This document shows positions 2,280 to 30,908 of a stretch of 64,000 nt of DNA, in pieces. Numbering within the stretch: position 1 is the first letter of the stretch; each line of letters opens with the position of its first letter. Under the pieces are notes generated by a model. It was not told the origin of the DNA and searched no databases. It saw only the letters and a program-made list of their open reading frames with translations. The DNA is taken from contig JBGSSW010000016.1 in the NCBI GenBank assembly GCA_041736805.1, forward strand, positions 66,526 to 130,525. The letters run 5' to 3'. This stretch comes from Minisyncoccia bacterium (GTDB lineage Bacteria; Patescibacteriota; Minisyncoccia; Phycocordibacterales; UBA918). Position numbers and translations under genes: made by a program.

Positions 2280-2738
2280 CAATCGTTTATCTGGGAATGA
2301 TAAACGTGCTCTTTTAATCCAGATGCTGGCACTGACTGCAACTTGTCACCCAGCGAAGCCTAGTGTGGAGGGGTGGATTTTACTACCTAGGCTTTCCCGT
2401 CATTGTCGGAAGTAAGCAAAGTCGATTATTAGTAACGCTTGCCAATGAGGGAACCAGAGACGAATTGTGACGATACTCAATCACCTCGGTAACGCAATAC
2501 CTGGACGAGGAAGTAGTCTCTTAATCCACCAAGCAGAATGGAACACTCACTTGTCTTGTCGCTGACCGTACTTACTTTGAATTAACAAGGTTGGAAGGAG
2601 AAATCCAAGGAGACGGAAGTACGAGAGAACACACCAAGTGCCGATAGTCATTCGAAAGGAGTTAAATTGTATCACTCATAATGCGACCGAATACCGCTCT
2701 TTAGCGTAAGGGAAAAAGCTTTACCACTTTTATCAACA
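2280..2738. ncRNA. Candidate structured noncoding RNA (~450 nt, ORF-free on both strands, GC about 48% within a ~30% GC neighbourhood). Family and strand unknown.
   Basis: No ORF of 60 aa or more on either strand between 2279 and 2738. There is an abrupt GC rise and many short complementary segments. I found no match to RNase P, tmRNA or tRNA consensus. Confidence 0.25.
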
Positions 2739-2937
2739 ATGTGGCGGAGCTTCGCTCCTAATTGCTATATATGTATGACAAAAAATAATGTAATAACAAT
2801 AATTAAAGTAAGTAATTTTTATTACCGTTTTTTGTTGTGTCTATCTATTTTATATAAACGTAGACAGCTATCCGATGCAATCAGTCGTTCACTAACGGTA
2901 TACACATTACAAATCAATTACGTAGAATCACGTATTT

Positions 2938-3534
2938 TTGCGTGTAAATTACAGTATGTTTAATTCACTTAACTTAAAAGAAATAACTGCAATCGAACTA
3001 AAATATTTAGGAAATACCAATGTTCAAATTGCTGAAAAAATTGACATCCCTGCACGCACTGTAGAGGGTTGGTTTATTAGTGGAGGTAAGCTTGAAGTCG
3101 AGTATCACGATTATTCAAAGCGTTTAAATAAATTACGTTTTGAAAACGTCTCTGAGCAAATTGCTTTAAACGACCAAGAAGTTTTGATTACCACTACAAA
3201 TGTAGTGCGTCACTTCGCTCGCAGACTACAACCAAGAGAAGTTACGCTAGTTCGTGAAGATGGTAATGCTGTGGTAGATGAAAACGGAAAAGCCAAAACT
3301 GTTTTGGTTGAACCAGACGCTCGTTTCACTATGAATGACTTTAAGACGGCTTGGCAGATACAACGCATTATGCAAGGCAAGCCAATTGACTACGTAAAGC
3401 AAGAAATTGAGACGACAAGCTTTGAACACGATGTGGTTATGAAAGAGCTTGGTTTGACAACAGAAGACTTCTCTGACGAAAGAATTGATGAAACAACCAA
3501 ACTGATCACGGACTATTTACTTAATTGTAAATAA
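2938..3534 (+). CDS. Hypothetical protein with a possible N-terminal HTH (phage-like); the true start may be the Met at 2956
   Basis: ORF track. The segment LNLKEITAIELKYLGNTNVQIAEKIDIPARTVEGW resembles a sigma-region-4/terminase-small-subunit type HTH. Confidence 0.45.
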   Translation: MRVNYSMFNSLNLKEITAIELKYLGNTNVQIAEKIDIPARTVEGWFISGGKLEVEYHDYSKRLNKLRFENVSEQIALNDQEVLITTTNVVRHFARRLQPREVTLVREDGNAVVDENGKAKTVLVEPDARFTMNDFKTAWQIQRIMQGKPIDYVKQEIETTSFEHDVVMKELGLTTEDFSDERIDETTKLITDYLLNCK

Positions 3535-3761
3535 TCTGCTTAGTTTGAGATTCTGCAATATCAATATATAATCTCTATACAACTGAATATAGACCTAACC
3601 CGTTAGTTTCGACTGACGGTATGGTTGAAAAACGCACGATACAAGAGACCCTGTCATATTAGGGCGTATCGTGCGTTGCCACTGGAAACGGTGGTAGGGG
3701 TTACCGAAAGGTGTCCTCCTAATGTGGCAGGTTTTGTTGTACCTGCTTCTAACTTTTAATT

Positions 3762-4598: not shown

Positions 4599-7283
4599 TT
4601 AACTCAAAATTGAGATGAGCCATTCGTAAGAAGCTTCACCTTGCTTTCTTTCAACATTATTCATTACACGCCCGTGCTTGACTGCATTTCTGTATTCCTT
4701 GAGTTGCAAGAAGTGCTTCTCGACTTCACCCCTAGAGCCAAAGACGCTCTCAAAAATATCCCAGTTTACAGATATAGTTTCTTGGTAATCCATTATATCG
4801 CAATAGTCAAAACGGTTTCTTGCACTAATAGGCTGACTTCTTTCTGCTGGGTGACGTTTAAATCTTTGCTCTAACTTTTGTTCAACACGTTGCTTTACAC
4901 CATTTGAAACTTTAGCGTCCCAATAATCAGCACCGAAAGCTTTACTCAAATGGGAATCAATAAAGTCTCTCAAATTTAATTCTAATTCATCAACTGCTGT
5001 TTCAGGTGCAGTTTCAAGAACTTCTTCGGTGTCAGGACTCAAGCCAATTTTGCTTCTAATTACCCTAATGATACTTTTTTCTCTTTCTTCGAGAAACCCA
5101 TCGAAGTTATCACTTTGAAGTAGAGCAAGTCCAACCGCACTAATTGTGTGCGACTCCAGTACTTCTGTAAGCGCCTGTTCATTGGATGAGTATTTGTCAG
5201 TTAAAAACTCATTTATGTAGACAGAAGGTACTTTATCCCTTTTTCTCATATTAGTTTCTTTTGACAACCAGGTCATATTAAGAACTGAATTAATATACGG
5301 ATGTTGCGAAAAACCAGCACTGTTAGACTTTGGGAAAATATGGTCTTTGTCATTACTTCTAGCCATCTCTAAAGCGTGTCCTGTTTCAAAATCTACAGCT
5401 CCAGCTAAAGCAATTAATGACATCACACCTTTGTATATTGCATTAGAATGGTTGTTTACCTCTTTTAAATCAAGATTTGAAAGGTCATTTCTGGCTTGTG
5501 TCACTACTTTAGGAATATTTTCTTCACCATTGAACCAATTCATAACCTCCTTATAGTCAGAAGTCATTTGAGTCTCTGCAGACGATGAGTAAGCGTTAGT
5601 AAAAATTGCTGACCAATACCACTGATCAATCTTTGACTGGCACAATAATCTGTCTGCTCTTGTGGCCGCTTCCATATTCAAAGCTGTGAGTACAGGAATC
5701 ATTGGAGAAAACGGCACCTCCTTATCATTTAATACACCGTAACCTGTACGTAAGTTTTCGAGCAAGTTAAAGGTTGATTCGAGATTTTCAACCACTTGAT
5801 TCCAGAGCGTGATAAATTCTTCAGCTGAAGATAGGGACAAGTTCTCGTATAAAGAAAGTAAATCTTTCTTCTTTGCTGAACTTGAGGGATGATGGATTAA
5901 TGAAAGGCACTGAAAAATGAACATCTTGGTTTTTTCAGACTTACAGTAGTTATTGATTCCTTCATAGTTCTCAAGTACCGATTCCCAGAGATTTCTCAAG
6001 TTGATGCCATTCCTAAGCAGTTTTGCGATTAGCAAATCAAATGTGCCAAGTGGTTTACCTTCAGTGTTAATTTTTTCAAAAATAACTGATACTTGTGCTA
6101 AGTCCATACTGCTAGGCAGAACAACAAACGGTATCTGAAAGCCTTGCCACATATGCCTGACTCTGGATTCAATCAATCTTTTTAGGTCTCTTAATTTCTC
6201 ATACGGTAAGTCAGCTTCAGTTGTATGTAAGTAGTCTTCAAGTCCGTCTAGCCATTCAAATGAATTTGAGAGCTTGTTAATTGGAAATAACAAACTTTCA
6301 TAGGTTTCAATGTTTGACAACTCTCTATCCTTCACAGTAATAATCCTCTCACTATTTTGTTCAAGAATAAAATTCTTAAAATCAATATAGTAATATGAAT
6401 TTTTAGAAGTACCCTTAAGAGGAAAATCGGGTGACTTAATCGCATAGTAAAGTGCGGTACAACGCTGTTGCCCATCCAGTATTATAAAATCAGTTCGACT
6501 CAATGAATTTGACGAACCTTGAATCGCAATCAACTCTAAAGGGGCTTGCTCATCTGATTCCCACAGTAAAAAGGCTCCGACATAGTAATCATTAAAGATT
6601 GATTCCAGAAGTGACCGCACGCTTTCTCTATTCCAATCAAAATATCTTTGGAAATTAGGAATCGCCCATCTGGTATCTAAATTTTCTATAATTCGTGCGA
6701 CATCAATTCTGTCCGGGCTACTTAAAGCGTGGGGAGAAAAACTGACAGTCGATAAATCTACTGATGTTACAAAATGCTTCAATCTTTCAGTTTCGAGTAC
6801 AGTGTCTACATCATAGTTTTCTGATGTAACAATTCTTTCAAAATCAGCAGAATTAATTTTCCTTATGCCACCCTGTAGATACGGCCCCCAAGAATAGGGA
6901 TTTTTGATAAATGACAAGTTGTTTAGTAGCGGTTTTATTGGCTTTGGTCTATCAAAAATTAATATGTCCGCTAAGTCCAGTCTGAACATATCCTCACTAC
7001 TAAAATAATTGTGAGAAGTATCACTTTCTCTATAAGCGGATGATGTGGCAGTAGCTGTACCAACAAAATGCTGATTTTCACCACCTAAGTAAAAAACAAT
7101 CTTGTCTCCAGGGACAATCTTAGCTCTTGCGGCTGTTCTAGGGTGTAAACCCCAAACACTCTTCGACATTAAATCAGTATAGATTTCAGATGCAGAAATC
7201 CTGTTGCCTGTACTGTCCTGATGCGACGTTATTATTGATATATAGTTACTCATAATGATGATTACTTTGAGTAAGCATATCAT
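4599..7283 (-). CDS. GmrSD-like type IV restriction endonuclease fusion: N-terminal EVE/PUA-like domain, DUF262 (DGQQR), DUF1524 (His-Me finger, DHIFP) and a C-terminal HEPN-like Rx4H motif. The probable true start is the Met at 7253.
   Basis: VWGLHPRTAARAKIVPGDKIVFYLGG...FVGTATATSSAY matches the EVE pattern (W.G....ARN....pGD...FY). IILDGQQRCTALYYAI is the DUF262 signature. DKDHIFPKS...N...L is DUF1524 HNH-like. The terminal LKEYRNAVKHGR is a HEPN Rx4-6H motif. Confidence 0.7.
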   Translation of the reverse strand: MICLLKVIIIMSNYISIITSHQDSTGNRISASEIYTDLMSKSVWGLHPRTAARAKIVPGDKIVFYLGGENQHFVGTATATSSAYRESDTSHNYFSSEDMFRLDLADILIFDRPKPIKPLLNNLSFIKNPYSWGPYLQGGIRKINSADFERIVTSENYDVDTVLETERLKHFVTSVDLSTVSFSPHALSSPDRIDVARIIENLDTRWAIPNFQRYFDWNRESVRSLLESIFNDYYVGAFLLWESDEQAPLELIAIQGSSNSLSRTDFIILDGQQRCTALYYAIKSPDFPLKGTSKNSYYYIDFKNFILEQNSERIITVKDRELSNIETYESLLFPINKLSNSFEWLDGLEDYLHTTEADLPYEKLRDLKRLIESRVRHMWQGFQIPFVVLPSSMDLAQVSVIFEKINTEGKPLGTFDLLIAKLLRNGINLRNLWESVLENYEGINNYCKSEKTKMFIFQCLSLIHHPSSSAKKKDLLSLYENLSLSSAEEFITLWNQVVENLESTFNLLENLRTGYGVLNDKEVPFSPMIPVLTALNMEAATRADRLLCQSKIDQWYWSAIFTNAYSSSAETQMTSDYKEVMNWFNGEENIPKVVTQARNDLSNLDLKEVNNHSNAIYKGVMSLIALAGAVDFETGHALEMARSNDKDHIFPKSNSAGFSQHPYINSVLNMTWLSKETNMRKRDKVPSVYINEFLTDKYSSNEQALTEVLESHTISAVGLALLQSDNFDGFLEEREKSIIRVIRSKIGLSPDTEEVLETAPETAVDELELNLRDFIDSHLSKAFGADYWDAKVSNGVKQRVEQKLEQRFKRHPAERSQPISARNRFDYCDIMDYQETISVNWDIFESVFGSRGEVEKHFLQLKEYRNAVKHGRVMNNVERKQGEASYEWLISILS

Positions 7284-7321
7284 TATAATTCATTATTTTC
7301 AGCTAAAATGATATAGTTTAA

Positions 7322-7939
7322 ATGACATTTATTTATATGGTTAAATACATAATTTTTCGATACCTAACTAACGCAGATTTTTTTAATATCTATAAACAAC
7401 CTGGTACGGAGTTAGGTGGTGGTGGTCAGGCTTATATTGATTTTCCTGCACAAGATGTATCTCTAGAGAAATGGGGTAAGTTTTTTGAAGACGCAAATAG
7501 TATTGTTTGTGACTCTGGAGAACAAGGCCCTATCTGGTATGTGCCACTAAATAGTATCGGTGTACAAGGTTCTCAAGAGGTAAAGATTTACCAGAGAAGA
7601 GCACAAAGTATATGCATTGCTTCACAACGAATTACTAGCACTAGAGAAAATCGAGTTAAGTCGTGGCATCCAGAAAATGGCTTTCCAGAACCTGCCGACC
7701 CATTAGAACGTAATCAACTTCCTCAGAATCTTCTTGTTTATCTACTTAGAACTAGCAACGATGAATTTTGGGCTGGATGGTCATTAAATCAAGTTCCTGC
7801 GAGAGACAATAATGCGATACAGCTAATTGCTGAAATGCACAATGAGGCTATGTCAGAAGGTCATTCTGGTTTTATTGAACCAACTGACACCCTACTGTTT
7901 GATTCAACTGATAAGGAAAAACCCTTCTTTACATCTTAA
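7322..7939 (+). CDS. Hypothetical protein (205 aa); candidate restriction endonuclease partner of the adjacent methyltransferases
   Basis: It lies between the type IV gene and the two methyltransferases, converging on them with an 11-bp overlap. It contains a possible D...EVK PD-(D/E)xK-like arrangement (CDSGEQG...SQEVKIY). The assignment rests mainly on genomic context. Confidence 0.4.
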   Translation: MTFIYMVKYIIFRYLTNADFFNIYKQPGTELGGGGQAYIDFPAQDVSLEKWGKFFEDANSIVCDSGEQGPIWYVPLNSIGVQGSQEVKIYQRRAQSICIASQRITSTRENRVKSWHPENGFPEPADPLERNQLPQNLLVYLLRTSNDEFWAGWSLNQVPARDNNAIQLIAEMHNEAMSEGHSGFIEPTDTLLFDSTDKEKPFFTS

Positions 7940-9006: not shown

Positions 9007-10746
9007 TTAAAATATGTCGTTAACCGAAACGTTAGTCAGTGCTTTAATAGGAAGCAGGCTATCAACTTTATTAAAAGTTTCGTATATAACCCCGTAATCC
9101 TTTTTGGTTAGACCAAACAAAGTTGCCACTAGACGCTCTATTTTAGCATCAATGGACTTTGGTACAACCTTATTGTTTTCAAGGTATGGCTTTAAAGTTG
9201 AGACAATTGCCTTTGAAATCTTTCCAAAAGATGCAGATTTTATATCTGGGAATGGTAAGTTAAGAATTTGACCTTGTGTTAAATAAGGATGAGAGCGCCA
9301 TTCAGTTTCACCGTATTTTTTGAGTAAAAAATAATACATCGCTCTTGAGTTAATTACACTCAACACTAACTCAATTGGAGCCGTCTCACTTGCCGGACTT
9401 TCTTTAGGTCTAAACATATACACAACCTGATTTGTGAGCGATTGTGTGTAATCAATAGATGCTGTAATTCCAACGCCAGTTTTGCGGACAATAATTTTTG
9501 GTTCGTAGTAAACACTAATATCCTTGTAGTTTATTCCTTTATTATCGACAGAAATCCAGTACTCAGAAGATATTGAGTAGCGTCGAATACTCTCACCTAC
9601 TAGGAGGGGCTTTGATCCTTTAAATTTTTTCTTACTAACAATATTTTGAACTTCGACTTTAGATAAGTCTGAATTTTTGGCGCAATGGTTACACTTAGGG
9701 CGCAGACTGTTTGGGTATGGGTTCCACTGACTACAGTAGTCACACTTATATACCTTCCCTGATTTAGACAATTCTACCCCTCTTGATGAAGATACGAAGT
9801 CACCAATAACTTTCTTACTAGAAGACAGCTTTTGTATTACCTTTAATTCATTGTCCTTTGTGTCTATATCGAAAAGGTATAGACCAGTTTCAGAAAAACG
9901 CTTTTGAAAAACTTTGTGTGACAACTTAGAGTTTGCATCCTCGTATGATAATTCATTCTTGAGAATTAGCTTTCTAGTTTCAAGATTCAACCGCATACAC
10001 TCAACTTCATTCTCAGCTGAAGGTACAGTGTTTTTAAATATTATTATCGTACATCCTCTACTAACGTCTTTAAATATTTTTTCACCAAGTCGTGCTATAT
10101 ATTTAATTTCTGTATTTTCAGTAAGTAATTTCCTAAGAACCTTTTTTTCGTGACTAAAAATTGAATCTGGAATTATGAAGGCACAATATCCACCTTTACG
10201 AACAATTCTTAGTGATAGCTCAATAAATAAATCAGATGAGTCAAACTGCCCTTTATTTAAAGTGTAGTCGCTGTGATTTAATTCCTTAACATAATGACTC
10301 ATATCCGCTCCCCAGGGAGGGTTGGCAACCAAAACATCAAAACCATCTTGTGCATTAAAATGACTCTGAAGTGACTTGATATCAAATATACTCAGTCTAC
10401 TTTCATAAGGAAATAAGGCATTTATTTTCAGAGTGTTTTTAGCAGAAATTAACTTAGAAGTGGTTTCCACTGCGTATTTATCAATATCTGTACCATACAA
10501 ATCAAAATGATTTGAAAGTTGATTTCGAGACAAGTATCTATTTACCGAGTGAAGTAATTCACCCTCTCCACAAGCGGGGTCAATTATTTTGAGACTATCG
10601 ACTTGTCTGTAAGCGCCTCTAGAAATATCTTCAGATAAAAAGTGTAGTACTTTACTGACCAGAAAATCCGCAAGGGGTTTTGGTGTATATACAATACCTA
10701 AATCACTTTTATACTGTGTTTTTTTATTTTTAGTGACTAAAACCAT
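9007..10746 (-). CDS. N6-adenine DNA methyltransferase, gamma-class (Eco57I/TaqI-like, NPPW motif) with a C-terminal target-recognition region containing a Cys4 zinc ribbon
   Basis: IIDPACGEGELL (motif I) ... LVANPPWGADMSHY (motif IV NPPW) ... CDYCSQW...CNHCAKN. Confidence 0.8.
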   Translation of the reverse strand: MVLVTKNKKTQYKSDLGIVYTPKPLADFLVSKVLHFLSEDISRGAYRQVDSLKIIDPACGEGELLHSVNRYLSRNQLSNHFDLYGTDIDKYAVETTSKLISAKNTLKINALFPYESRLSIFDIKSLQSHFNAQDGFDVLVANPPWGADMSHYVKELNHSDYTLNKGQFDSSDLFIELSLRIVRKGGYCAFIIPDSIFSHEKKVLRKLLTENTEIKYIARLGEKIFKDVSRGCTIIIFKNTVPSAENEVECMRLNLETRKLILKNELSYEDANSKLSHKVFQKRFSETGLYLFDIDTKDNELKVIQKLSSSKKVIGDFVSSSRGVELSKSGKVYKCDYCSQWNPYPNSLRPKCNHCAKNSDLSKVEVQNIVSKKKFKGSKPLLVGESIRRYSISSEYWISVDNKGINYKDISVYYEPKIIVRKTGVGITASIDYTQSLTNQVVYMFRPKESPASETAPIELVLSVINSRAMYYFLLKKYGETEWRSHPYLTQGQILNLPFPDIKSASFGKISKAIVSTLKPYLENNKVVPKSIDAKIERLVATLFGLTKKDYGVIYETFNKVDSLLPIKALTNVSVNDIF

Positions 10747-11410
10747 TACTTAATTTTAGCACGTCACTCATTCATTTTTTGTAGTTATCCAAAATTTTAG
10801 TATTGTAAATTAAGGATATTATTAGTATAGGTATCTACATTTGCTTCATCTTAAACTTTGTAAGTGACCACTCATTCTTAGAACGTCCATTGCCTGGCTT
10901 CTTTCCAGTAAACGCTCCCATTCTACCCAGTTTACGTTTATAAAGGTGCTTAGATTGCGGAGCAAATCAAAAAACGCCTTAGGGTGTTTTTTGTTTGTGA
11001 CGCGGGAGAACGTGACTAAATGTCACGTTCGTTAGGATTCGAAGCCGGATTGAGCTAGATTTGAGCTTGCGAAAAATCTAGCCAATTTGGTTACTGGTCG
11101 TGTAACGACCGAAATTCCTACCGCGGAGCAAACTTGACACATCCTTTTGATAAGATAATGTTCTTATGGGTTCGGCATCGACCGGACATCTCTAGGAAGG
11201 TGTAATGAATCATATTCGTATAGTCACCCAGCACATGTTGTGCATCGGAGCACCTGTAGTCGGGGCTCTCGCTCTCACCCAAATCAGTCTTTGGCTAGGT
11301 AATGGTCCAGTGGTACTAAATCCATTTGTCTGTGCCCTAGCCCTGGTTGCCTCGCCGTTTCTATACATGATGGGAGTGCGAATGAAGGGCGGGGCCTGAA
11401 TGTTGTTACT

Positions 11411-11455
11411 ACCGCTTGTACAGACACCGCGTCTGTATGAGCGGTTTCTGTTTTT
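11411..11455 (+). terminator. Rho-independent terminator-like hairpin followed by a T-run
   Basis: accgcttgtacagacaccgcgtctgtatgagcggt forms an extended stem of about 13 bp and is followed by ttctgttttt. Confidence 0.45.
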
Positions 11456-11501
11456 ATACACAAGCGGTTCGAACATCCTTCACCCAGCGGAGCAAAATAG
11501 G
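11448..11501. repeat. Left copy of an ~55-bp imperfect direct repeat (putative att-like boundary)
   Basis: tttttatacacaagcggttcgaacatccttcacccagcggagcaaaa aligns with 16781-16836 (ttattttatacaaaaaacgcagcggttcgagcatcacacacctagcggagtaaa). Partial copies occur at 11117-11146 and 17117-17132. Confidence 0.5.
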
Positions 11502-11870
11502 ATAACCCTTCACTTCAGTCATGAGGTCGAAGGTTTTTGCCTAATGTGGTAACTTTCATCGGCATCAACTAAATTCTCTAGTTGAAGACTTAATGACTCG
11601 CTGTCTGTGTCTTAATTCTTTCTCTTTCTTGTCATATTCATCCTGAGCAATTCTCCACTTTGGTACGGAGTTTCTCTTTACATTCTAATTCTGAACTTAT
11701 CTATGAAAACAAATTCAGTTACCTTCTCTAACAGGGCGTTTTTCCATTAGACTTAAGGTTTTAATACCACTTGCCATTTAAATGATTCCAACTTTTATGA
11801 CTTACAAATCTTTAATTTGTTAATGTGGATAATAAACAATTTATACTTTAATAATTGATATTATAAAGTT

Positions 11871-11898
11871 TGATTAATTGTTCATTAACTTAATTAAC
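11871..11898. promoter_or_regulatory. AT-rich TTAATTAA-containing operator-like motif upstream of the ClpP-like gene, followed by RBS GAGGTG at 11899-11904
   Basis: tgattaattgttcattaacttaattaac. A related motif is repeated upstream of the 13262 gene. Confidence 0.3.
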
Positions 11899-11909
11899 GA
11901 GGTGTACAA

Positions 11910-12575
11910 ATGGTCTCTAAAATTAGACTTGGAAAACTGGATGAATTTGAACGTGCTACATTACTAATGGAAAGAGGTATTGACTTGGGTCGTCGAAAGA
12001 TGATTGTCGGTGTCCCATACATAAGTAACAACAGTGAAAGTGATGTAGGGTTCCCCCTTGTAGCAAACTTCTTTACCGGCCTCCATGCTCTGGAACACTT
12101 TTATGAGCCAAAAGCTGGAGAAACTCCAAGAGAGCATATCGATATTGAGTTTGTCAGCTACGGAGGAGACTTGCATGCATCGTTCGGAATATTCGATCGA
12201 ATCACCATGGTGTCTGTCCCCGTACATATCTATGTCTATGGGCCATGCATGAGTGCCGGTAGCTTGATTCTCCAAGCAGCGACCAAACGTTTTATGTCAC
12301 CAAAATCAAGCTTGATGCTTCATTATGGTTTTACTGCAGATGAGGGTACTTCGGACCCCAAACGTCTTGAAGAGGTACTTCGTTATCACAAGAAGCTCAT
12401 GGATACACTAGTCAGTATATATCTATCTAGTTGTAACAAAAATATTCTCACTGAAGAAATACTTCGAAACAAGATTCTTCCGATTGAGACATATCTAGAT
12501 GCAGAGTCTTGTCTAAAGTACGGACTTACCGATGAAATAATCGAGCCAGTAATTCCAGGATTAGCTAGTTGCTAG
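11910..12575 (+). CDS. ClpP-family (S14) serine peptidase, orphan and divergent, with an intact Ser-His-Asp triad
   Basis: IDIEFVSYGGDLHASFGIFDRITMVSVPVHIYVYGPCMSAGSLILQAATKRFMSPKSSLMLHYG aligns with the E. coli ClpP segment [66 protein letters not shown]. The C-terminal YGLTDEII aligns with YGLVDSIL. Confidence 0.75.
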   Translation: MVSKIRLGKLDEFERATLLMERGIDLGRRKMIVGVPYISNNSESDVGFPLVANFFTGLHALEHFYEPKAGETPREHIDIEFVSYGGDLHASFGIFDRITMVSVPVHIYVYGPCMSAGSLILQAATKRFMSPKSSLMLHYGFTADEGTSDPKRLEEVLRYHKKLMDTLVSIYLSSCNKNILTEEILRNKILPIETYLDAESCLKYGLTDEIIEPVIPGLASC

Positions 12576-12608
12576 CAACAAAAAGGGTGGCGTCTGTCAC
12601 CCTTTTAC

Positions 12609-13085
12609 TTATTTATTCTTTAATAGACTCTCATTTTTAATAACCTTCTTCAAAACAGAAACAAAATTTTCATACTCATCTGAATCAAGATTTTTTAGAA
12701 GGGGCTCAAAAAAGACTAAAAACTGTTGTTGTGAGAGAGATAGAATCTTTTTACCCTCTTTTGTTATACACATACTTTTTTTTCGTTTATCTCCACCATT
12801 TGCAATGATTGAAATAAGACCACGATTCTCCAATTTAGTTCCTATGACAGTTAAAAATGAATCCTGAATTCCTAACTCTTCAGCAACATCTGAAAAAGAC
12901 ACGAAGTCACCTTTATGATCGAGAAAACCAAGAAGAATCCAGTCTCCAGTATTGAGCTCAAATACTCTTAGAGCTCTTGTCATGTAGCTTTTTGTAATTC
13001 TATGAAATTTACTTTGTAACAAAGCGACTTTTGTTGCCTTTTGTATAAAAGGTATTTTCAAGGAAAACTTATTGATCATAAGCAA
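12609..13085 (-). CDS. MarR-family winged-helix transcriptional regulator, divergent from the 13262 operon
   Basis: Size is 158 aa. It has the central wHTH pattern (FSDVAEELGIQDSFLTVIGTKLENRGLISI...GDKRKK) and is divergently arranged with a shared intergenic region carrying repeated motifs. Confidence 0.6.
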   Translation of the reverse strand: MLMINKFSLKIPFIQKATKVALLQSKFHRITKSYMTRALRVFELNTGDWILLGFLDHKGDFVSFSDVAEELGIQDSFLTVIGTKLENRGLISIIANGGDKRKKSMCITKEGKKILSLSQQQFLVFFEPLLKNLDSDEYENFVSVLKKVIKNESLLKNK

Positions 13086-13170
13086 TATTGTATCTCAAAA
13101 TAATTACATAGCAAATTTTTTCCACATCTGAGATTTGTTAATAGATAGTTAAGTTAGTAAACTATAAAGT

Positions 13171-13223
13171 AGATTAATTAAGTTAATGAATAATTAAGTT
13201 AATTAATTGTTAGTTCCTTGACA
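13171..13223. promoter_or_regulatory. Divergent promoter/operator region: direct repeats of taattaagttaat plus a TTGACA -35-like hexamer (13218-13223)
   Basis: agattaattaagttaatgaataattaagttaattaattgttagttccttgaca lies between the divergent MarR gene and the 665-aa gene. Confidence 0.3.
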
Positions 13224-13261
13224 TTTATCTTCCCGCTTACCTTTACTAAAGGAATTTTATC

Positions 13262-15259
13262 ATGGCAAAGAATGTTAAAGTCCGGAAAGCTGTCTTGGTT
13301 GACAGGTCTAAAATCAATGATTTCATCAAAAGTAATCGCCAACTTTCAAGAAAGGAACTCGCTGAAAAATGTGGCATCAGTAAGAATGCCGTGAAGGAAC
13401 GTGAACATCTAATGAACCTGACTAGGGAATGGAAAATGGCAGAAAAAGCACAGCCCGAAGACAGGCTTTCTCAGCGACAGGAGTTTGCCAGCATCTGGAA
13501 CGATGCCCGAACATACCCGGCTAAGTATGACCTGGAGCGCGCTCTAGGTAGTAACTTTCGCGCTCTGCAGGCAAGGGCGCGTCGCTACACACAGTTTCGG
13601 GTCAACCAGCCAACCCTTGGTTTACCAGAACTGATTTGGCGACAACAAATTACCGGGGGTATGATTGCGGTACCAGAAGGCGTCATACGTCAATTGGATG
13701 AATTTCGAGTCACTCCGGAGTTACTTGACGCTCTTTCTAAAGGGAAAATTTCCAAGGTACTACTGACCGGCTACCAGTTCGGTGCCAGCTTGAACCAAAA
13801 CTTCTGGAAATCCCTGAAACATTACGAAACAGAACGTGGTACTCCCCTACTGGTCTTGCCAATCAAGTACGGCCCAATCAAAACTGTTGCCCATAAAGGT
13901 ACCGGTAATCGTATCTTGACCAGTACCTTCCCGGCCGAGCTTCATGGTCACATGATTTTCGAGAATCAAGTCATATTCAATGATGAACTTGAGATCAATG
14001 TGATGCGCATGCGCCCGACATTGGTTACCTTTCTCACCCCTAGTGTCTGTCAAAGGGGTGGTACGCGGTCGCAGATATTCGCAGCGCCCAAACTAGAGCT
14101 CAAGCACCAAATGCGGATTGGACGACATCAACCCAAGGCCCTTATGACAACTGGGGCAGTAAGTTACCCAAGCTACTCAGTCGATAACCTCGGTCAACAA
14201 GATCGAACAGGGGAAATTGCCGCTCAAGAGCATGAATTTGCAGCCGTGGTGATTGAGCTTGGCAAAAAAGGCTTTCACTTCCGCCAACTCCTAGCCAATA
14301 AACGTGGTGAGTTCTACGACATCAACATCAATAAGGGTGGGGCCGACCTCTTCACACCAAATGGGGTTGAGCACCGTCCAGACGACGTTGATGCGCTTTA
14401 TTGCGGTGATCTGCATATCGGGATTACCGATCCCCAGGTAGAGGAAGCCACGTTCGAGAAGAATGGTATTGTCTCCATCCTTAAGCCAAAAAATATCGTG
14501 TTTGGGGACGATATCGATGGTTGGAGTATCAACCATTATGACGAAGAGCATCAGGGCGCTAGGCGGTCTTGGAAAGCTCAACACGGTCTGGATAGTCTAG
14601 AACGTGAACTCGAGATGGCAGTGGCAAAGCATAAGTGGATACATGCCAAAGTTACTTCCTACGTACCAAAAATCAAGATACATCGCATTGCTGCCAATCA
14701 CCCCGAGTTTGTGTCGGAATACATCGAAAGTAGAAAATGGGCAATGCGAGGGCATGACGTCAACGCCGTAATCGGGGCTGAACTATTCTTGGCCATGCGA
14801 GAAAGCATCAGAAAGCCAAAGCTGAAGCTACTCAGGTCTGGTGGATTTGGAACAGAGTTTTTGACTCCCAAAGACTTGGACGTCAGCCCCATCGACCCAG
14901 TTGTTTGGTACTTCCGCAAGCATTGTCCAGAGATAATTTCCTACGAACGAAAAGATCAACTGTTCTTCCCTAAAGGAGTCAAGCATCCGATACTTTGTTC
15001 ACTTCACGGTGACAAAGGTAGCCGTGGTGGCAAAACGCGAAGCACAAAAGAATTTCAAAACGTGGGGAGACGGACACTGCTCGGCCATAACCATTCTGCC
15101 GAAATCAATGGCATAGCTTGGCGTGTTGGTACGTCGACCGGACGAACCCAACACTACGTGATGTTCCCAGGCACAAACTGGTCACAGTCACACGCTGCCA
15201 TCTTCAAGAATGGTCAGCGACAACTGTTAAACATCATCATGGGTGAGTGGCACGGGTAA
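13262..15259 (+). CDS. Large protein (665 aa) with an N-terminal HTH-like segment and a C-terminal region carrying calcineurin-like metallophosphoesterase-type motifs in canonical order; function unknown
   Basis: The N-terminus has RQLSRKELAEKCGISKNAVKERE (HTH-like). The C-terminal half has YCGDLHIG, VFGDDIDGW, IAANHPE, LHGDKGSRGG and LLGHNHS, resembling the PPP/MPP motifs GDxHG, GDxxDRG, GNHE, HGG-RG and GHxH. GC is higher (about 50%) than the surrounding DNA. Confidence 0.55.
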   Translation: MAKNVKVRKAVLVDRSKINDFIKSNRQLSRKELAEKCGISKNAVKEREHLMNLTREWKMAEKAQPEDRLSQRQEFASIWNDARTYPAKYDLERALGSNFRALQARARRYTQFRVNQPTLGLPELIWRQQITGGMIAVPEGVIRQLDEFRVTPELLDALSKGKISKVLLTGYQFGASLNQNFWKSLKHYETERGTPLLVLPIKYGPIKTVAHKGTGNRILTSTFPAELHGHMIFENQVIFNDELEINVMRMRPTLVTFLTPSVCQRGGTRSQIFAAPKLELKHQMRIGRHQPKALMTTGAVSYPSYSVDNLGQQDRTGEIAAQEHEFAAVVIELGKKGFHFRQLLANKRGEFYDININKGGADLFTPNGVEHRPDDVDALYCGDLHIGITDPQVEEATFEKNGIVSILKPKNIVFGDDIDGWSINHYDEEHQGARRSWKAQHGLDSLERELEMAVAKHKWIHAKVTSYVPKIKIHRIAANHPEFVSEYIESRKWAMRGHDVNAVIGAELFLAMRESIRKPKLKLLRSGGFGTEFLTPKDLDVSPIDPVVWYFRKHCPEIISYERKDQLFFPKGVKHPILCSLHGDKGSRGGKTRSTKEFQNVGRRTLLGHNHSAEINGIAWRVGTSTGRTQHYVMFPGTNWSQSHAAIFKNGQRQLLNIIMGEWHG

Positions 15260-15391
15260 AATCAATAGTAATGATTTTGCTGGTTTATGAGCACTTATTG
15301 TAAACCAGCATATTTTTCAGATTACGAATTAATTTTCGCAATTTGAAAGATATTAGTTCTTTGACATAACCTAACAGTAAAGGAGAAATTT

Positions 15392-15712
15392 GTGAATAAA
15401 TTCAATTTACGTCGTCTATTTGAAAATATGATTAGCTTTGTTGTGCTCGATACAAACATCATACTAAAGGAACTAATTGTCCCCGGGTACTACATTGCAA
15501 AATCAAAAACACTGCGAATTTCATCAACAAAAGATGGTGCTGATTTGGTGAAAATTACCTACGCCGCCTTGATTCATCATCTCCATCCTAAAACCTCCCT
15601 GGAGACTTGTCTGGAGTACGCGGGGGAAATGACCTTAAAAATAAACAAGTCAGAGATGCAGTGGGCAATAAAATATATTAGGGACCATACAATAAAACTT
15701 TCCATTGTTTGA
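15392..15712 (+). CDS. Hypothetical protein (106 aa); its stop overlaps the next gene's start by 4 nt, so it is in the operon
   Basis: ORF track. ATGA overlap with the start of the 15709 gene. Confidence 0.4.
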   Translation: MNKFNLRRLFENMISFVVLDTNIILKELIVPGYYIAKSKTLRISSTKDGADLVKITYAALIHHLHPKTSLETCLEYAGEMTLKINKSEMQWAIKYIRDHTIKLSIV

Positions 15713-16251
15713 AACGGAGAATCGAAATGAAACCTGTAGATATTGATACCGTTCGGAAAATTCCCCTTAAGTATAAAACAATCTATCTAGCTGGAGGACT
15801 TTTCAATGCTGGAGAGCAGGTTCATAACCTGCTATTACGCCTGTCTCTAAGTAAGTACGGGTTCAAGGTCATACTTCCACAAATTGAGGCTGAGAAATTC
15901 AAAAGAGATGACGGTACTTTGGATATGCAAAAAGTTGTCGAGGATTGCTACTCTCATGTGGAGGATCCGCTAACTCTTGTAGTTGCCAACATGGATGGAG
16001 TGGATGCCGAATCTGGGACCGTCGCTGAGGTAGCAACTGCTCATGCCGTCAATGGTTACGCCATCATGTACCGAACAGACTTTCGTACTTGCCCAGAACA
16101 TGAGGCTGGAGTAAATGCGATGTTTCGATATCTAAAGCCCTCCATCATTTACTGCCCTTTTCACCTGAGCTCTATTTATGAAGTAGAAGACAACTACGAC
16201 AAACTGGCGCTGAGGATTGTCGAGACAATCATAACGAAACTTCCTAAGTAA
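15709..16251 (+). CDS. Nucleoside 2-deoxyribosyltransferase-like (NDT/DNPH1/Rcl fold) protein
   Basis: IYLAGGLFNAGEQ (YLAGPFF-like N-terminal motif) and VVANMDGVDAESGTVAEVATAHAVNGYAI (D.DSGTxxExG catalytic-Glu motif of the PF05014 family). Confidence 0.7.
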   Translation: MKRRIEMKPVDIDTVRKIPLKYKTIYLAGGLFNAGEQVHNLLLRLSLSKYGFKVILPQIEAEKFKRDDGTLDMQKVVEDCYSHVEDPLTLVVANMDGVDAESGTVAEVATAHAVNGYAIMYRTDFRTCPEHEAGVNAMFRYLKPSIIYCPFHLSSIYEVEDNYDKLALRIVETIITKLPK

Positions 16252-16270
16252 CATGAGGCGGAGTCCGTTC

Positions 16271-16304
16271 ACCCCTGTACTAATTTAGTACAGGGTTTGT
16301 TTTT
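16271..16304 (+). terminator. Rho-independent terminator of the 13262-16251 operon
   Basis: cccctgtac-taattta-gtacaggg followed by tttgttttt. Confidence 0.65.
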
Positions 16305-16759
16305 GATTAATTATTTTTTAAAATAAAAACTGATTTTAATTACCTTTTATACTTACTTTCTTTTAAGTAGTAACCTCATCAAGAAAGCAGGCTGGAGATT
16401 TATTGTAGACTCTAACAGTTCTTTCCTGAAACCGGGTAATGTGCAAGCACATTACCCGCATATATTGACACTGGGTAAACATAAGTACGCTGTTCGTAAT
16501 TTCAAGCGAAAAAGGGTCTCGTATCTGGAGCCCAGACTTCGTAGAGGCAAACCAAGTAATCCAGGACGCTACCCAAATGCCGACGGTCGCGTGCGACATT
16601 GGTTCCGATGCCATTCATGTCCGCGGAGAAGACGCAAACGGTCGTTTCTTGGTCAAGACGTTCTACAACTCAAAAAAGTGATTCGCGGCCGAGATGACTA
16701 AATGCACAGGTAGAACAGACCGCCACTGCGGGCGGAAGAAAGGACAACTGTCCCGACTT

Positions 16760-16788
16760 CCCCACTTGGTGGGCGTTTATTTATTTTA
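16760..16788 (+). terminator. Terminator-like hairpin with a T-run inside the noncoding block, immediately before the right repeat copy
   Basis: ccccacttggtgggcg followed by tttatttatttt. Confidence 0.45.
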
Positions 16789-16836
16789 TACAAAAAACGC
16801 AGCGGTTCGAGCATCACACACCTAGCGGAGTAAATC
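16781..16836. repeat. Right copy of the ~55-bp imperfect direct repeat (see 11448-11501)
   Basis: ttattttatacaaaaaacgcagcggttcgagcatcacacacctagcggagtaaatc. It shares tttatacaMaa, gcggttcgaRcatc and ccNagcggagYaaa blocks with the left copy. Confidence 0.5.
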
Positions 16837-17454
16837 AAAAATGTGTATTGATTGTGTAATAATCAATATTACTGATCGCAAAGTACAGAAATGACCTGGT
16901 TGTAAAATAACTTAACTACTCACCCAAATTACTATATACTAGTGACCATGACACGAATAATTGCATCAAGCCCAAAAAAGAATACAAAAACACGTCCTTA
17001 TAAATCACCAAAGCGTTTAGCAGCAAAGAAGGAAATGCTTGCAAAAAAGTCGGGCAAAAAAGGAAGATAATAGAATATTTAAACGACTACTTCACAACTC
17101 ACTATTAAACTAAGGGGGTTCGAACGTCCTTCTTCCTACAGAAGCTGTCCACTTTGTCGCTATTTTTTCCTAGCGTCAAAATAGCTGGCAAAGCCTTGCG
17201 AAATGCTCCCAGCATTTCTCACCCAGTGGGGCAGAGAAAAATAACCATGATAAACATGGTTATTTTTTATTCAGAGTTAATACCCCGGGAGGACGCGTTC
17301 GAACTTTTGCTTGACTTTATGATTATTTTAATGTGTAATAAACTACGAAACGGGTTTACGCTTACCCACTCACAATTAAGCGAGTTCCCTCTAAATAGAG
17401 CTGCTGCTTTGAAACCCTATTAACCTGTAATATAATAATCTTAATAACTAAGAT

Positions 17455-29819: not shown

Positions 29820-30908
29820 CTATGTAATAGGTTTAGGGACTAACTTGAGTAAGGTCACTTGGTTCTTAGACCCTAGGCGCATGGGTGGACCCCAGGTGCC
29901 TGTTCCGGGCGTAACATGTAGGTACTTTCCTTCTTCCAAGTAAAGACCATTCACATAGCGAAAAAATATACGTACTAGTAAATTAAAAGGGTAGACTTGT
30001 CCGTTATGAGTATGTCCAGAGAGCATAATGTCTATTCCATGTTTTCGAGCCGACTCCCATTCAACTGGGGTGTGGTACATCAGAATACTAGGCAGGTTTG
30101 TATCAACAGCAAGATTACTTAAGATTGAATCTAGAGTAATGGCGCGAGGCAAGCTCTGTCTATCATTAACGCCAATCAACTGTATACCCTCATGGATAAC
30201 CATTTGATTTTCGAGCAACTGCAGTTTGAGATTTTTAACAGTTTCGCGTACATACGGCAGACCTTCATACTCTTCGTGGTTACCGTGCGAGAAGTAACTT
30301 GGAGCTGAAAGTGAGTCGAGTGGACTTAGTATTTGTTCATCTATTGGTACCGATCCATCAAACAAATCTCCAGAAATTAAAACTAAATCCGGTGAAAGTT
30401 TGTTGGTCAGCTCGACCACTCGTTCCAGAAACTTTTCTTGATGAACTGTCCCAACATGAATATCAGATAAATGTACAACGTGGAGTTTTTTGGTTAAGCC
30501 AGCAATGGGAGTAACGTATTCTCTTATTACTAAATTTCTACCTTGCCAGAGGGCATAAAGTGAAAATAAGCCTCCAAGTAAAAGTAGGGCTATTAAGACA
30601 AACTTTGATTCAAAACCAGTGAAGATATGCAGAAGTTCATAGGGTAATACAGCTGAAAACAAAAGCATAATTACTCCGAGCCAACTAGCCGCCAGAAAGT
30701 AAAACTGATCTGTCAGAGTACTGTTAATTTTCCTTACTAGTAAGCTAGCAAAAAAATATGAAATAGCCAAAAAAGCCAAAATGGGAATTGCGGCTGGTAT
30801 AGATAACGAAAATACTCTGGCAGCGGTTTCATACACAAAATAGTGCATGAAAAATAAAACAGTCCAGCCAATAGCAATAAAAATTATGAAACGCATTATG
30901 AGCAGCAT
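29820..30908 (-). CDS. Membrane-anchored calcineurin-like metallophosphoesterase
   Basis: N-terminal TM helices, then LHVVHLSDIHVG, ISGDLFDG, SHGNHEEYEG and LSGHTHNGQ. Confidence 0.7.
   Translation of the reverse strand: MLLIMRFIIFIAIGWTVLFFMHYFVYETAARVFSLSIPAAIPILAFLAISYFFASLLVRKINSTLTDQFYFLAASWLGVIMLLFSAVLPYELLHIFTGFESKFVLIALLLLGGLFSLYALWQGRNLVIREYVTPIAGLTKKLHVVHLSDIHVGTVHQEKFLERVVELTNKLSPDLVLISGDLFDGSVPIDEQILSPLDSLSAPSYFSHGNHEEYEGLPYVRETVKNLKLQLLENQMVIHEGIQLIGVNDRQSLPRAITLDSILSNLAVDTNLPSILMYHTPVEWESARKHGIDIMLSGHTHNGQVYPFNLLVRIFFRYVNGLYLEEGKYLHVTPGTGTWGPPMRLGSKNQVTLLKLVPKPIT

Follow-up and report, generated by a model that had tools for sequence, protein, structure and literature searches.

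A distant homologue of the phage T5 A1 protein in a putatively MarR-controlled chromosomal cassette of a Minisyncoccia bacterium

We analysed a 64,000-nucleotide stretch of DNA (hereafter the window) from a Minisyncoccia bacterium of the Patescibacteriota, or candidate phyla radiation (CPR; assembly GCA_041736805.1, contig JBGSSW010000016.1, positions 66,526 to 130,525 of the forward strand). A cassette of five genes in this window encodes a ClpP-like peptidase, a divergently oriented MarR-family repressor, a 665-aa protein, a 106-aa protein and a member of the nucleoside 2-deoxyribosyltransferase (NDT)/DNPH1 superfamily (Table 1); all five open reading frames (ORFs) listed in a preliminary description of this DNA were present where it had placed them. 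Judged by sequence, the 665-aa protein is distantly homologous to the A1 protein of phage T5 and has a motif set predicted to be catalytically intact. The A1-like clade to which it belongs is linked, at the level of gene neighbourhoods, to a MarR unit with operator-like TTAA palindromes and, in a minority of lineages, to an NDT gene, with the 106-aa and ClpP-like families tied in by a loose network of associations. We tentatively read the cassette as a chromosomal module, gated by a repressor, that would degrade DNA and process deoxynucleotides, assembled from parts of phage ancestry and with the scavenging or rebalancing of deoxynucleotides as its favoured role, a reading that we hold with somewhat less than even confidence.

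The assignment of the 665-aa protein is based on a match of its residues 160-663 to positions 83-540 of the 542-position PHROGs profile phrog_1745, annotated as 'DNA transfer protein' (E 9.5e-62). Searches with tblastn against phages returned 553 records, mostly designated 'A1 protein' of T5-like phages, with ~23-24% identity (E 1e-14 to 1e-16), and the best phage match was the 'metallophosphatase' of Ochrobactrum phage OC (28.6% identity). The protein is composed of an N-terminal helical region (aa 1-160), a beta-rich middle and a C-terminal metallophosphoesterase domain, and is predicted to be cytoplasmic, as it possesses neither a signal peptide nor a transmembrane segment. The calcineurin-type metallophosphoesterase motifs D383-x-H385, D416, N479-H480, H582 and H609-x-H611 were all invariant in an alignment of 39 family members, and the corresponding fold was complete in a confident AlphaFold2 model (pLDDT 90, pTM 0.80). 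Foldseek searches with this model gave weak matches to metallophosphoesterase-fold proteins, the nearest being LpxH and the nuclease-type proteins DP1, SbcD and Mre11; no solved structure of an A1 relative was detectable by sequence. The preliminary description had labelled this an 'HTH/phosphoesterase' protein. The metallophosphoesterase domain is borne out by the complete and invariant motif set; the helix-turn-helix (HTH) part corresponds to a weak match at aa 22-47 (Pfam HTH_24, E 0.0027, below threshold), beyond which Pfam and NCBIfam returned nothing for the protein, and the specific membership in the T5 A1 family had been missed. Short proteins that co-clustered with the 665-aa protein were rejected as unrelated sequences brought in by a clustering artefact.

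The host-killing A1 protein of T5 remained an enigma for decades, and to our knowledge A1 was thought to be essentially restricted to T5-like phages. In a T5-like phage the gene order is A2, A1, two small ORFs and Dmp. T5 A1, a predicted metallophosphatase, has recently been reported to be essential, and both necessary and sufficient for the degradation of the host chromosome, and the deoxynucleoside monophosphates (dNMPs) released are turned into nucleosides by Dmp, a dNMP phosphatase (bioRxiv 10.64898/2026.04.02.716235). The cassette protein resembles T5 A1 in its homology over ~500 residues (core ~460-500) and in having all metallophosphoesterase motifs; furthermore, in both settings the A1 gene is followed by one or more small genes and then by a gene for an enzyme acting on deoxynucleotide-level products. 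Unlike T5 A1, the cassette protein (~23% identical to it) is encoded on a CPR chromosome and not in a phage first-step-transfer region, has a CPR-specific N-terminal extension of 160 residues and putative MarR control, and is accompanied by an NDT-family partner instead of a HAD-type phosphatase. No homologue of A2 or Dmp was found in the window. Because of the chromosomal housekeeping context described below and the lack of A2 and Dmp, we consider the protein a member of the T5 A1 family by homology, not a phage pre-early gene. The A1 family itself is already known; what appears to be new here is an A1-family protein in a cellular, MarR-associated setting with an NDT partner.

Homologues of the A1-like protein comprised 78 proteins with 24-77% identity, nearly all of them metagenome-derived and unannotated. 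Twelve loci were detected in ~185,000 species-representative genomes, all in CPR-type metagenome-assembled genomes, and 37 more were retrieved from metagenomes (individual loci are designated below by L-numbers). The CPR proteins grouped as a single clade on a long branch of a rough neighbour-joining tree, with phage OC and the phage-like contig L049 as the nearest outgroup. The genuine phage L020 (IMGVR_UViG_3300028392_000059) carries an A1-like gene (9926-11674, 37% identity) that is nested within the CPR clade, which argues that the family moves between CPR chromosomes and phages; its gene order is terminase, portal, A1-like, a 1550-aa minor-head/RNA polymerase fusion, scaffold and major head. 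This position in a head module also hints that some A1-like proteins may be packaged into virions. In the best cultured-phage relative (L058 198-2519, Ochrobactrum phage vB_OspM_OC), a gene annotated as ImmA/IrrE metallopeptidase is situated directly upstream. Two further observations concern individual loci: the two independent assemblies that contain the closest relative (L001 and L002, 77% identity) both stop 67-85 nt past the A1-like stop codon, which suggests a repeat or a strain-variable region directly 3′ of the gene in that population, and L036 has a partial second A1-like copy (2675-3145) ~2.8 kb upstream of the full-length one.

Chromosomal A1-like copies were situated among housekeeping genes (TopA, RelA/SpoT, ParB, MetK, Mur ligases, GluRS, GlpX and MsrB), and in 6 syntenic loci of one CPR clade a UvrD-type helicase gene was located 2-4 kb away. 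Such contexts, together with the conserved catalytic residues and the proximity of UvrD, could point to a nuclease for repair or end processing, functionally similar to Mre11/SbcD or to the PolD DP1 exonuclease, in which case the NDT, ClpP-like and 106-aa proteins would be incidental. However, the UvrD gene in no case directly adjoins the A1-like gene and lies in varying orientation, no Rad50/SbcC-like partner lies beside the A1-like gene, and the closest sequence relatives are host-takeover proteins of phages and not repair nucleases. The A1-like protein has no detectable sequence similarity with Mre11/SbcD or PolD DP1 and differs from them in its accessory domains and in having neither a Rad50/SbcC nor a polymerase partner. 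As a repair role would also leave the recurrent linkage with NDT and MarR unexplained, we consider it quite unlikely.

The putative regulator of the cassette was assigned to the MarR family by its winged-helix profile match and by a candidate palindromic operator found in the divergent promoter region of its gene; for this gene, a start at 13061, giving a 150-aa protein, is favoured by gene callers. Within the 64 kb there are exactly three instances of the palindrome ATTAA-S-TTAAT, where 0.23 would be expected, and none falls outside the cassette: two of them between the MarR and A1-like genes and one upstream of the ClpP-like gene. In addition, the two operator regions are joined by a 24-nt inverted repeat (11874-11897 versus 13174-13197, 96% complementary), and TTAA-rich motifs related to the window operator were also present between the MarR and A1-like genes of L001, L017 and L065. 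The earlier proposal of MarR operator motifs upstream of both the protease and the A1-like unit thus holds, as predicted sites.

The A1-like and the 106-aa genes are each preceded by the exact 15-mer TTAGTTCYTTGACAT, which has no other zero-mismatch match in the window. The terminators mentioned in the preliminary description were recovered as three hairpins, the one after the A1-like gene being followed by a T-run. Since this hairpin with its T-run separates the A1-like gene from the 106-aa gene, and since the 15-mer precedes each of the two, the segment 13262-16251, which had been regarded as one operon, probably represents two transcription units with matching promoters; the genes assigned to it are all there.

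Gene linkage was counted by tblastn and ORF clustering in lineages with sufficient flanking sequence (~23 upstream and ~20 downstream of the A1-like gene). A divergent MarR gene (38-51% identity) was found within 1.5 kb upstream of the A1-like gene in 5 of ~23 lineages (window, L001/2, L026, L065 and L017), and 3.8 kb from it in one further lineage (L004-6). NDT-family genes were located within 2 kb downstream in 4 of ~20 lineages (window, L007/24, L010 and L022/23/25); MarR and NDT were combined in the window only. In L007/24, L010 and L022/23/25 the product of the gene between A1-like and NDT is small and has about three transmembrane segments; in the window it is the soluble 106-aa protein. 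Relatives of the latter were encoded directly after MarR and opposite the A1-like gene in L065, and directly after a ClpP-like gene in L062. In the phage-like contig L049, which encodes a phage DNA polymerase and has no capsid genes in the 13-kb stretch examined, the A1-like gene is directly followed (5467-7904) by one for a stand-alone 189-aa ClpP-like protein 33% identical to that of the window. An annotated 'N-deoxyribosyltransferase' near A1 in Nostoc phage NMeng1, initially considered strong support, was downgraded, as its Pfam match is sub-threshold and it is dissimilar to the window NDT; no counterpart of the window NDT was found in phages by tblastn.

These records bear on the possibility that the five genes are unrelated neighbours without a common function, their recurrences reflecting the shared ancestry of a few genomes. 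NDT and MarR are indeed missing near most A1-like lineages, the relatives of the ClpP-like protein were never found near A1-like, MarR or NDT genes, and the loci with the three-gene operon containing a membrane protein may descend from one ancestor. On the other hand, the associations recur in varied arrangements and with divergent partners (the window compared with L065, L062 and L049), the window NDT falls outside the lineage of the other linked NDTs, and within the 64 kb the exact palindrome is confined to the ClpP-like and A1-like/MarR promoters, which share it. The co-localisation of homologues in several combinations and the common operator uphold the earlier view that the cassette is not a random juxtaposition, and we rate its dismissal as a functional unit as very unlikely.

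The ORF of the NDT-family protein is open from TTG 15709, and its likely start is ATG 15727, which is preceded by a GGAG ribosome-binding site. Its motifs YLAG-x-LF and DG-x-D-x-SGT-x-x-E are conserved, and the catalytic Glu, reported earlier as intact, is present within SGTVAE; this Glu and the residues Y26-L27-A28 and L31-F32 (numbered from TTG 15709) were invariant in comparison with L007 and L010. The best matches in the Protein Data Bank were NDTs (E ~1e-3), and 134 homologues were found, of which the named ones are from CPR and share 40-54% identity. The protein thus agrees with the NDT/DNPH1 family (PF05014), common in CPR as a salvage-type gene, in scoring above the gathering threshold, and stands apart from characterised NDTs, for which this arrangement is undescribed, in that its gene is placed 3′ of an A1-type nuclease gene here and in three other lineages. 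Unlinked CPR NDTs share 52-54% identity with the window NDT (one of them is encoded after a histidine kinase, another between an HD-domain protein and NDK), the A1-linked ones only 31-37%, so that the A1/NDT linkage was formed or rebuilt more than once. Genes for LOG/SLOG (PF03641) proteins, which are nucleotide N-glycosidase-like, were observed no more than a few kb from an A1-NDT operon (L007 13248-14006, minus strand), a ClpP-like gene (L064 82-630, minus) and a stand-alone NDT gene (L068 5631-6335, minus); this proximity may merely reflect the abundance of LOG in CPR.

The ClpP-like protein has 27 relatives with 41-68% identity, which constitute a small chromosomal family of CPR with the synteny Pth, LepB, ClpP-like, YbeY, FtsA and FtsZ. 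It had been credited with an intact catalytic triad: Ser and His are indeed invariant, but the position of Asp171 is occupied by Glu in 28 of 28 CPR members. Only the broad Pfam threshold was passed; scores against NCBIfam were 37-52 bits for ClpP models (cutoffs 228-361) and 64 for a head-maturation model (cutoff 120). With ClpP and the phage S14 prohead proteases it has in common the S14 fold family, the retained Ser and His and a best profile match to the head-maturation family phrog_94, and it differs from them in the Glu for Asp exchange, in an extra 70 N-terminal residues and in having no ClpX, ClpA or capsid genes near the cassette, its relatives being located near ftsA and ftsZ. No A1-like, MarR or NDT genes and no operator were found in the neighbourhoods of these relatives, the MarR-type operator being confined to this window. 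Four neighbourhoods spoke against a conserved pairing of ClpP-like with A1-like genes in CPR, an idea that was rejected; the gene belongs to a chromosomal family with housekeeping synteny and is no regular companion of the A1-like gene.

The family of the 106-aa protein is very small, with 5 relatives among 1.84 billion representatives. Its predicted fold weakly resembles minimal zincin, ImmA-IrrE and CapP peptidases, and the HExxH motif is absent. In this respect the cassette is reminiscent of ImmR/ImmA, DdrO/IrrE and CapH/CapP, the last from cyclic oligonucleotide-based antiphage signalling systems (CBASS), as in L065 a repressor and a small protein with a CapP/IrrE-like fold are encoded divergently from a putative toxic effector gene. 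The cassette repressor is, however, of the MarR type and not of the XRE type, and the 106-aa family lacks HExxH. A role of the 106-aa protein as ImmA/IrrE peptidase was rejected on the grounds of the missing motif and of a negative profile comparison with the ImmA/IrrE protein of phage OC. Homology with the small membrane protein of L007 and L010 was likewise dismissed (20-24% identity in a forced alignment; soluble versus three transmembrane segments).

The enzymology of the cassette points to the processing of DNA or deoxynucleotides, insofar as it can be read from the identities of the A1 family and the NDT; the pairing had already been interpreted as nucleotide or deoxynucleotide processing, and these identities support it. 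In the scheme that we favour, MarR would bind the ATTAA-S-TTAAT sites and so repress transcription from the A1-like promoter; in this genome it would also repress the ClpP-like gene. Upon de-repression, the A1-like enzyme would degrade DNA, by analogy with T5 A1, and the NDT enzyme would exchange the bases of the freed deoxynucleosides or deoxynucleotides or cleave their N-glycosidic bonds, a two-step logic that would parallel the succession of A1 and Dmp in T5. The 106-aa protein and the ClpP-type peptidase would be accessory or regulatory, possibly through proteolytic control of the repressor or the nuclease. The CPR are auxotrophic for nucleotides, and it is this auxotrophy, together with the ordinary chromosomal contexts of A1-like genes and the salvage-type NDT, that makes us favour salvage. 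The two alternatives offered in the preliminary description, a nucleoside-salvage module and a phage or satellite origin, each seem to hold a part of the answer.

Several points weigh against the scavenging role. The A1-like family (12 loci in ~185,000 genomes, 78 proteins) is oddly rare for a central salvage route, most of its lineages have no MarR and NDT nearby, and the middle gene varies, encoding a membrane protein elsewhere and the soluble 106-aa protein here. The reaction of the NDT (transfer, dNMP hydrolysis or another) cannot be read from sequence, and DNase activity of T5 A1 itself is still unproven in vitro (bioRxiv 10.64898/2026.04.02.716235). A cytoplasmic A1-type nuclease should, moreover, be toxic, so that roles in defence or as a toxin would fit at least as well, and the neighbourhood in the window is a restriction/type IV cluster.

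The same biochemical logic would suit a nucleotide-depleting defence equally well. The cassette may accordingly constitute an undescribed anti-phage system of the abortive-infection type, in which MarR, possibly with the 106-aa and ClpP-type proteins, would sense infection, the A1-like protein would destroy DNA and the NDT-like protein would destroy the pool of deoxynucleotides or of nicotinamide adenine dinucleotide, and thereby block phage replication; we regard this as a doubtful but credible alternative. In a more specific and, in our opinion, unlikely version, the system would have been domesticated from a phage takeover toolkit and be gated by repressor and protease: inactivation of MarR, possibly via the 106-aa and ClpP-type proteins, would allow the A1-like protein to erase DNA and an NDT-type glycosidase to destroy deoxynucleotides, so that the phage is starved. 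A defensive role is favoured by the EVE-GmrSD_N-HEPN protein and the two methyltransferases that adjoin the cassette, by the patchy and rare distribution, by the toxicity of T5 A1 and its sufficiency for chromosome degradation (bioRxiv 10.64898/2026.04.02.716235), and by the weak similarity of the 106-aa fold to CapP/IrrE regulators of defence and damage responses. The A1-like gene also deviates most in GC content, in which it is similar to its closest relative, found in a 55%-GC genome; this would be suggestive of transfer. Against defence, none of the five cassette proteins fits a PADLOC model, and the NDT is part of the general CPR NDT family. Elsewhere the A1-like gene is found among genes for GluRS, GlpX, TopA, RelA, ParB, MetK and UvrD and not in defence islands; the defence-island setting proposed earlier is therefore specific to this window. 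MarR-type control is typical of metabolic and stress genes, for which it is commoner than for defence.

In PADLOC-DB v2 there was no match for the ClpP-like, A1-like, 106-aa and NDT proteins, and for MarR the matches were confined to the generic winged-helix portion of CARF models. A known defence system was ruled out on this basis, in agreement with the earlier statement that no named system has this composition. NDT-like proteins are known as effectors of retron defence, which speaks for the defensive reading, and the combination of an NDT with a structured RNA (see below) suggested a retron-like system; this was also rejected, as there was no reverse transcriptase ORF in the cassette, no Rfam retron RNA and no PADLOC retron effector.

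Whatever the case, a conserved, catalytically intact and unannotated A1 clade in CPR chromosomes, coupled with MarR and NDT, points to a cellular use of the same chemistry. If the module feeds DNA into salvage, it bears on the supply of DNA precursors in organisms without nucleotide biosynthesis; if it is defensive, it would represent a new nuclease-plus-nucleotide-depletion system in a lineage with poorly known immunity. The CPR A1-like proteins also offer soluble and diverse homologues for work on the biochemistry and structure of A1.

Table 1. Features of the cassette and its flanks (positions within the window)
Feature	Position	Strand	Details
Non-coding block A	10940-11500	+	47% GC; highly structured as predicted RNA; putative link to cassette
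Direct repeat, left copy	11447-11496	+	TTTTATACA...AGCGGTTCGAACATC...CACCCAGCGGAGCAAA; imperfect, ~80% identity to right copy
Third operator-like copy	11874-11897	.	ATTAACTTAAT at 11884-11894; 16 nt 5′ of ClpP-like ATG
ClpP-like (S14) peptidase, 221 aa	11910-12575	+	PF00574 61.8 bits, 1e-16; phrog_94 2.7e-26
Hairpin between convergent ClpP-like and MarR genes	12581-12606	.	
MarR-family repressor, divergent	12609-13085	-	MarR_2 29.9 bits (cutoff 27), 6e-7
Two operator-like palindromes	13177-13187, 13193-13203	.	ATTAAGTTAAT; MarR/A1-like intergenic, just 5′ of A1-like -35 box
Promoter-like element	13210-13224	+	TTAGTTCCTTGACAT; holds TTGACA -35 box; 38 nt before A1-like start
A1-like metallophosphoesterase, 665 aa	13262-15259	+	phrog_1745, E 9.5e-62
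Terminator-like hairpin and T-run after A1-like gene	15278-15310	+	
Promoter-like element, second copy	15353-15367	+	TTAGTTCTTTGACAT; 25 nt before 106-aa gene
106-aa soluble protein	15392-15712	+	very rare family
NDT-family protein (nucleoside 2-deoxyribosyltransferase/DNPH1 superfamily)	15727-16251	+	PF05014 40.4 bits (cutoff 28.8), 3.8e-10
Terminator hairpin closing 106-aa/NDT unit	16273-16295	+	
Non-coding block B	16360-16840	.	47% GC; ends in right repeat; structure not significant (z -1.3, -1.1)
Direct repeat, right copy	16783-16834	+	imperfect, ~80% identity to left copy

The cassette had been described as a block markedly richer in GC than its surroundings, and this is true of the 665-aa gene, the GC content of which (48.5%; 50.3% at third codon positions; z 2.8) is the highest among 54 window genes, and not of the cassette as a whole. 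The NDT gene is mildly raised (43.8%), the ClpP-like gene average (41.7%), the 106-aa gene has 37.4%, and the MarR gene, with 31.0%, represents the minimum of the window. Among 20 relatives, A1-like genes exceeded their flanks by a mean of 2.7 points of GC, the window showing the largest excess (10.3 points), and the gene of the closest relative (77% identity) has 51% GC within a 55%-GC contig. These two observations are compatible with a fairly recent acquisition, or allele replacement, of the A1-like gene alone; a uniformly foreign cassette does not fit.

The imperfect direct repeats that were reported to bound the cassette are real (~50 bp, ~80% identical) and are separated by 5.34 kb; the 14-mer core of the repeat occurs three times in the window (0.29 expected). 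They could be taken for the former attachment sites of a decaying prophage or satellite without present function for the host. The A1 family and the best profile matches of the ClpP-like protein are phage families, phage L020 carries a CPR-type A1-like gene, nested in the CPR clade, between portal and head genes, the phage-like L049 has a ClpP-like gene directly after the A1-like one, and the GC content of the A1-like gene would be in line with such an origin. Nevertheless, all reading frames are intact with invariant catalytic residues, the CPR homologues maintain clade-level synteny in housekeeping regions, and the cassette has what appears to be dedicated regulation, with three operator-like copies and twin promoter-like elements. 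No integrase, capsid, portal, terminase or other phage structural gene is present among the genes of the 64-kb window, and a remnant is in our judgement highly improbable, the least probable of the explanations considered. The repeats were also rejected as phage attachment sites, since no copy of the motif was found in IMG/VR viral contigs or in the 69 fetched loci, and the window has neither an integrase nor tRNA genes; no relative with an empty site was found, and the idea that the imperfect repeats are the ends of a mobile element is not supported.

Both flanks of the cassette contain GC-rich non-coding blocks (47% GC each), in line with the preliminary description, and homology between the two blocks is limited to the ~50-bp repeat. 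Block A is predicted to fold far more stably than shuffled sequence (minimum free energy -212 vs -164 +/- 6 kcal/mol, z -8.0), the signal being concentrated in a GC-rich core element of 137 nt (10996-11132, plus strand; -61.8 vs -34.2 +/- 3.7 kcal/mol, z -7.4). This core forms a very stable, multi-branched predicted RNA with a CGCGG/CCGCG closing stem; the recurring motif GCGGAGCAAA comes after it. Neither block A nor the 137-nt element had a match in Rfam at E <= 10 or a homologue in any fetched locus. The blocks were rejected as decayed genes, as tblastx against all loci and the window gave nothing, and as known RNAs, as Rfam searches were empty at the gathering threshold, at E <= 1 and at E <= 10.

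The window as a whole represents a segment of a bacterial chromosome (38.5% GC overall), with genes for F-type ATP synthase subunits, Fpg, HisRS, RpoD, an AddA-type helicase-nuclease and glycogen-related enzymes. The sole further contig on record, from Logan run SRR28170465 (32.7 kb), represents the same contig with an identical arrangement; identical cassette proteins were also retrieved from an NCBI contig of 194.6 kb, and the named homologues of the cassette proteins originate from Patescibacteria/CPR.

Upstream of the cassette, the restriction-modification and type IV neighbourhood noted before was confirmed, consisting of an EVE-GmrSD_N-HEPN protein, a 205-aa ORF and two N6-adenine methyltransferases. 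The first of these (894 aa, 4599-7283, minus strand) combines an EVE domain, a reader of modified bases, with GmrSD_N (DUF262) and a C-terminal Swt1-like HEPN domain that replaces the usual DUF1524 nuclease, an unusual type IV-like architecture; it matched the PADLOC candidates HEC-05 and PDC-M55C. The 205-aa ORF (7322-7939, plus strand) matches no known family, separates the type IV-like gene from the two methyltransferase genes, overlaps the end of the D12 methyltransferase gene, and could be a candidate for the missing restriction endonuclease.

A second calcineurin-like metallophosphoesterase, unrelated to the A1-like protein, is encoded elsewhere in the window (PF00149, 362 aa, 29820-30908, minus strand). 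A LOOT RNA (Rfam RF03000; 73 bits against a gathering score of 46) was detected at 3592-3716 on the plus strand, between a 198-aa ORF and a zinc-ribbon protein. Finally, the 1.2-kb gene-free stretch 3′ of the NDT gene contains a 40-codon ORF (16949-17071, plus strand) that encodes the very basic peptide MTRIIASSPKKNTKTRPYKSPKRLAAKKEMLAKKSGKKGR.

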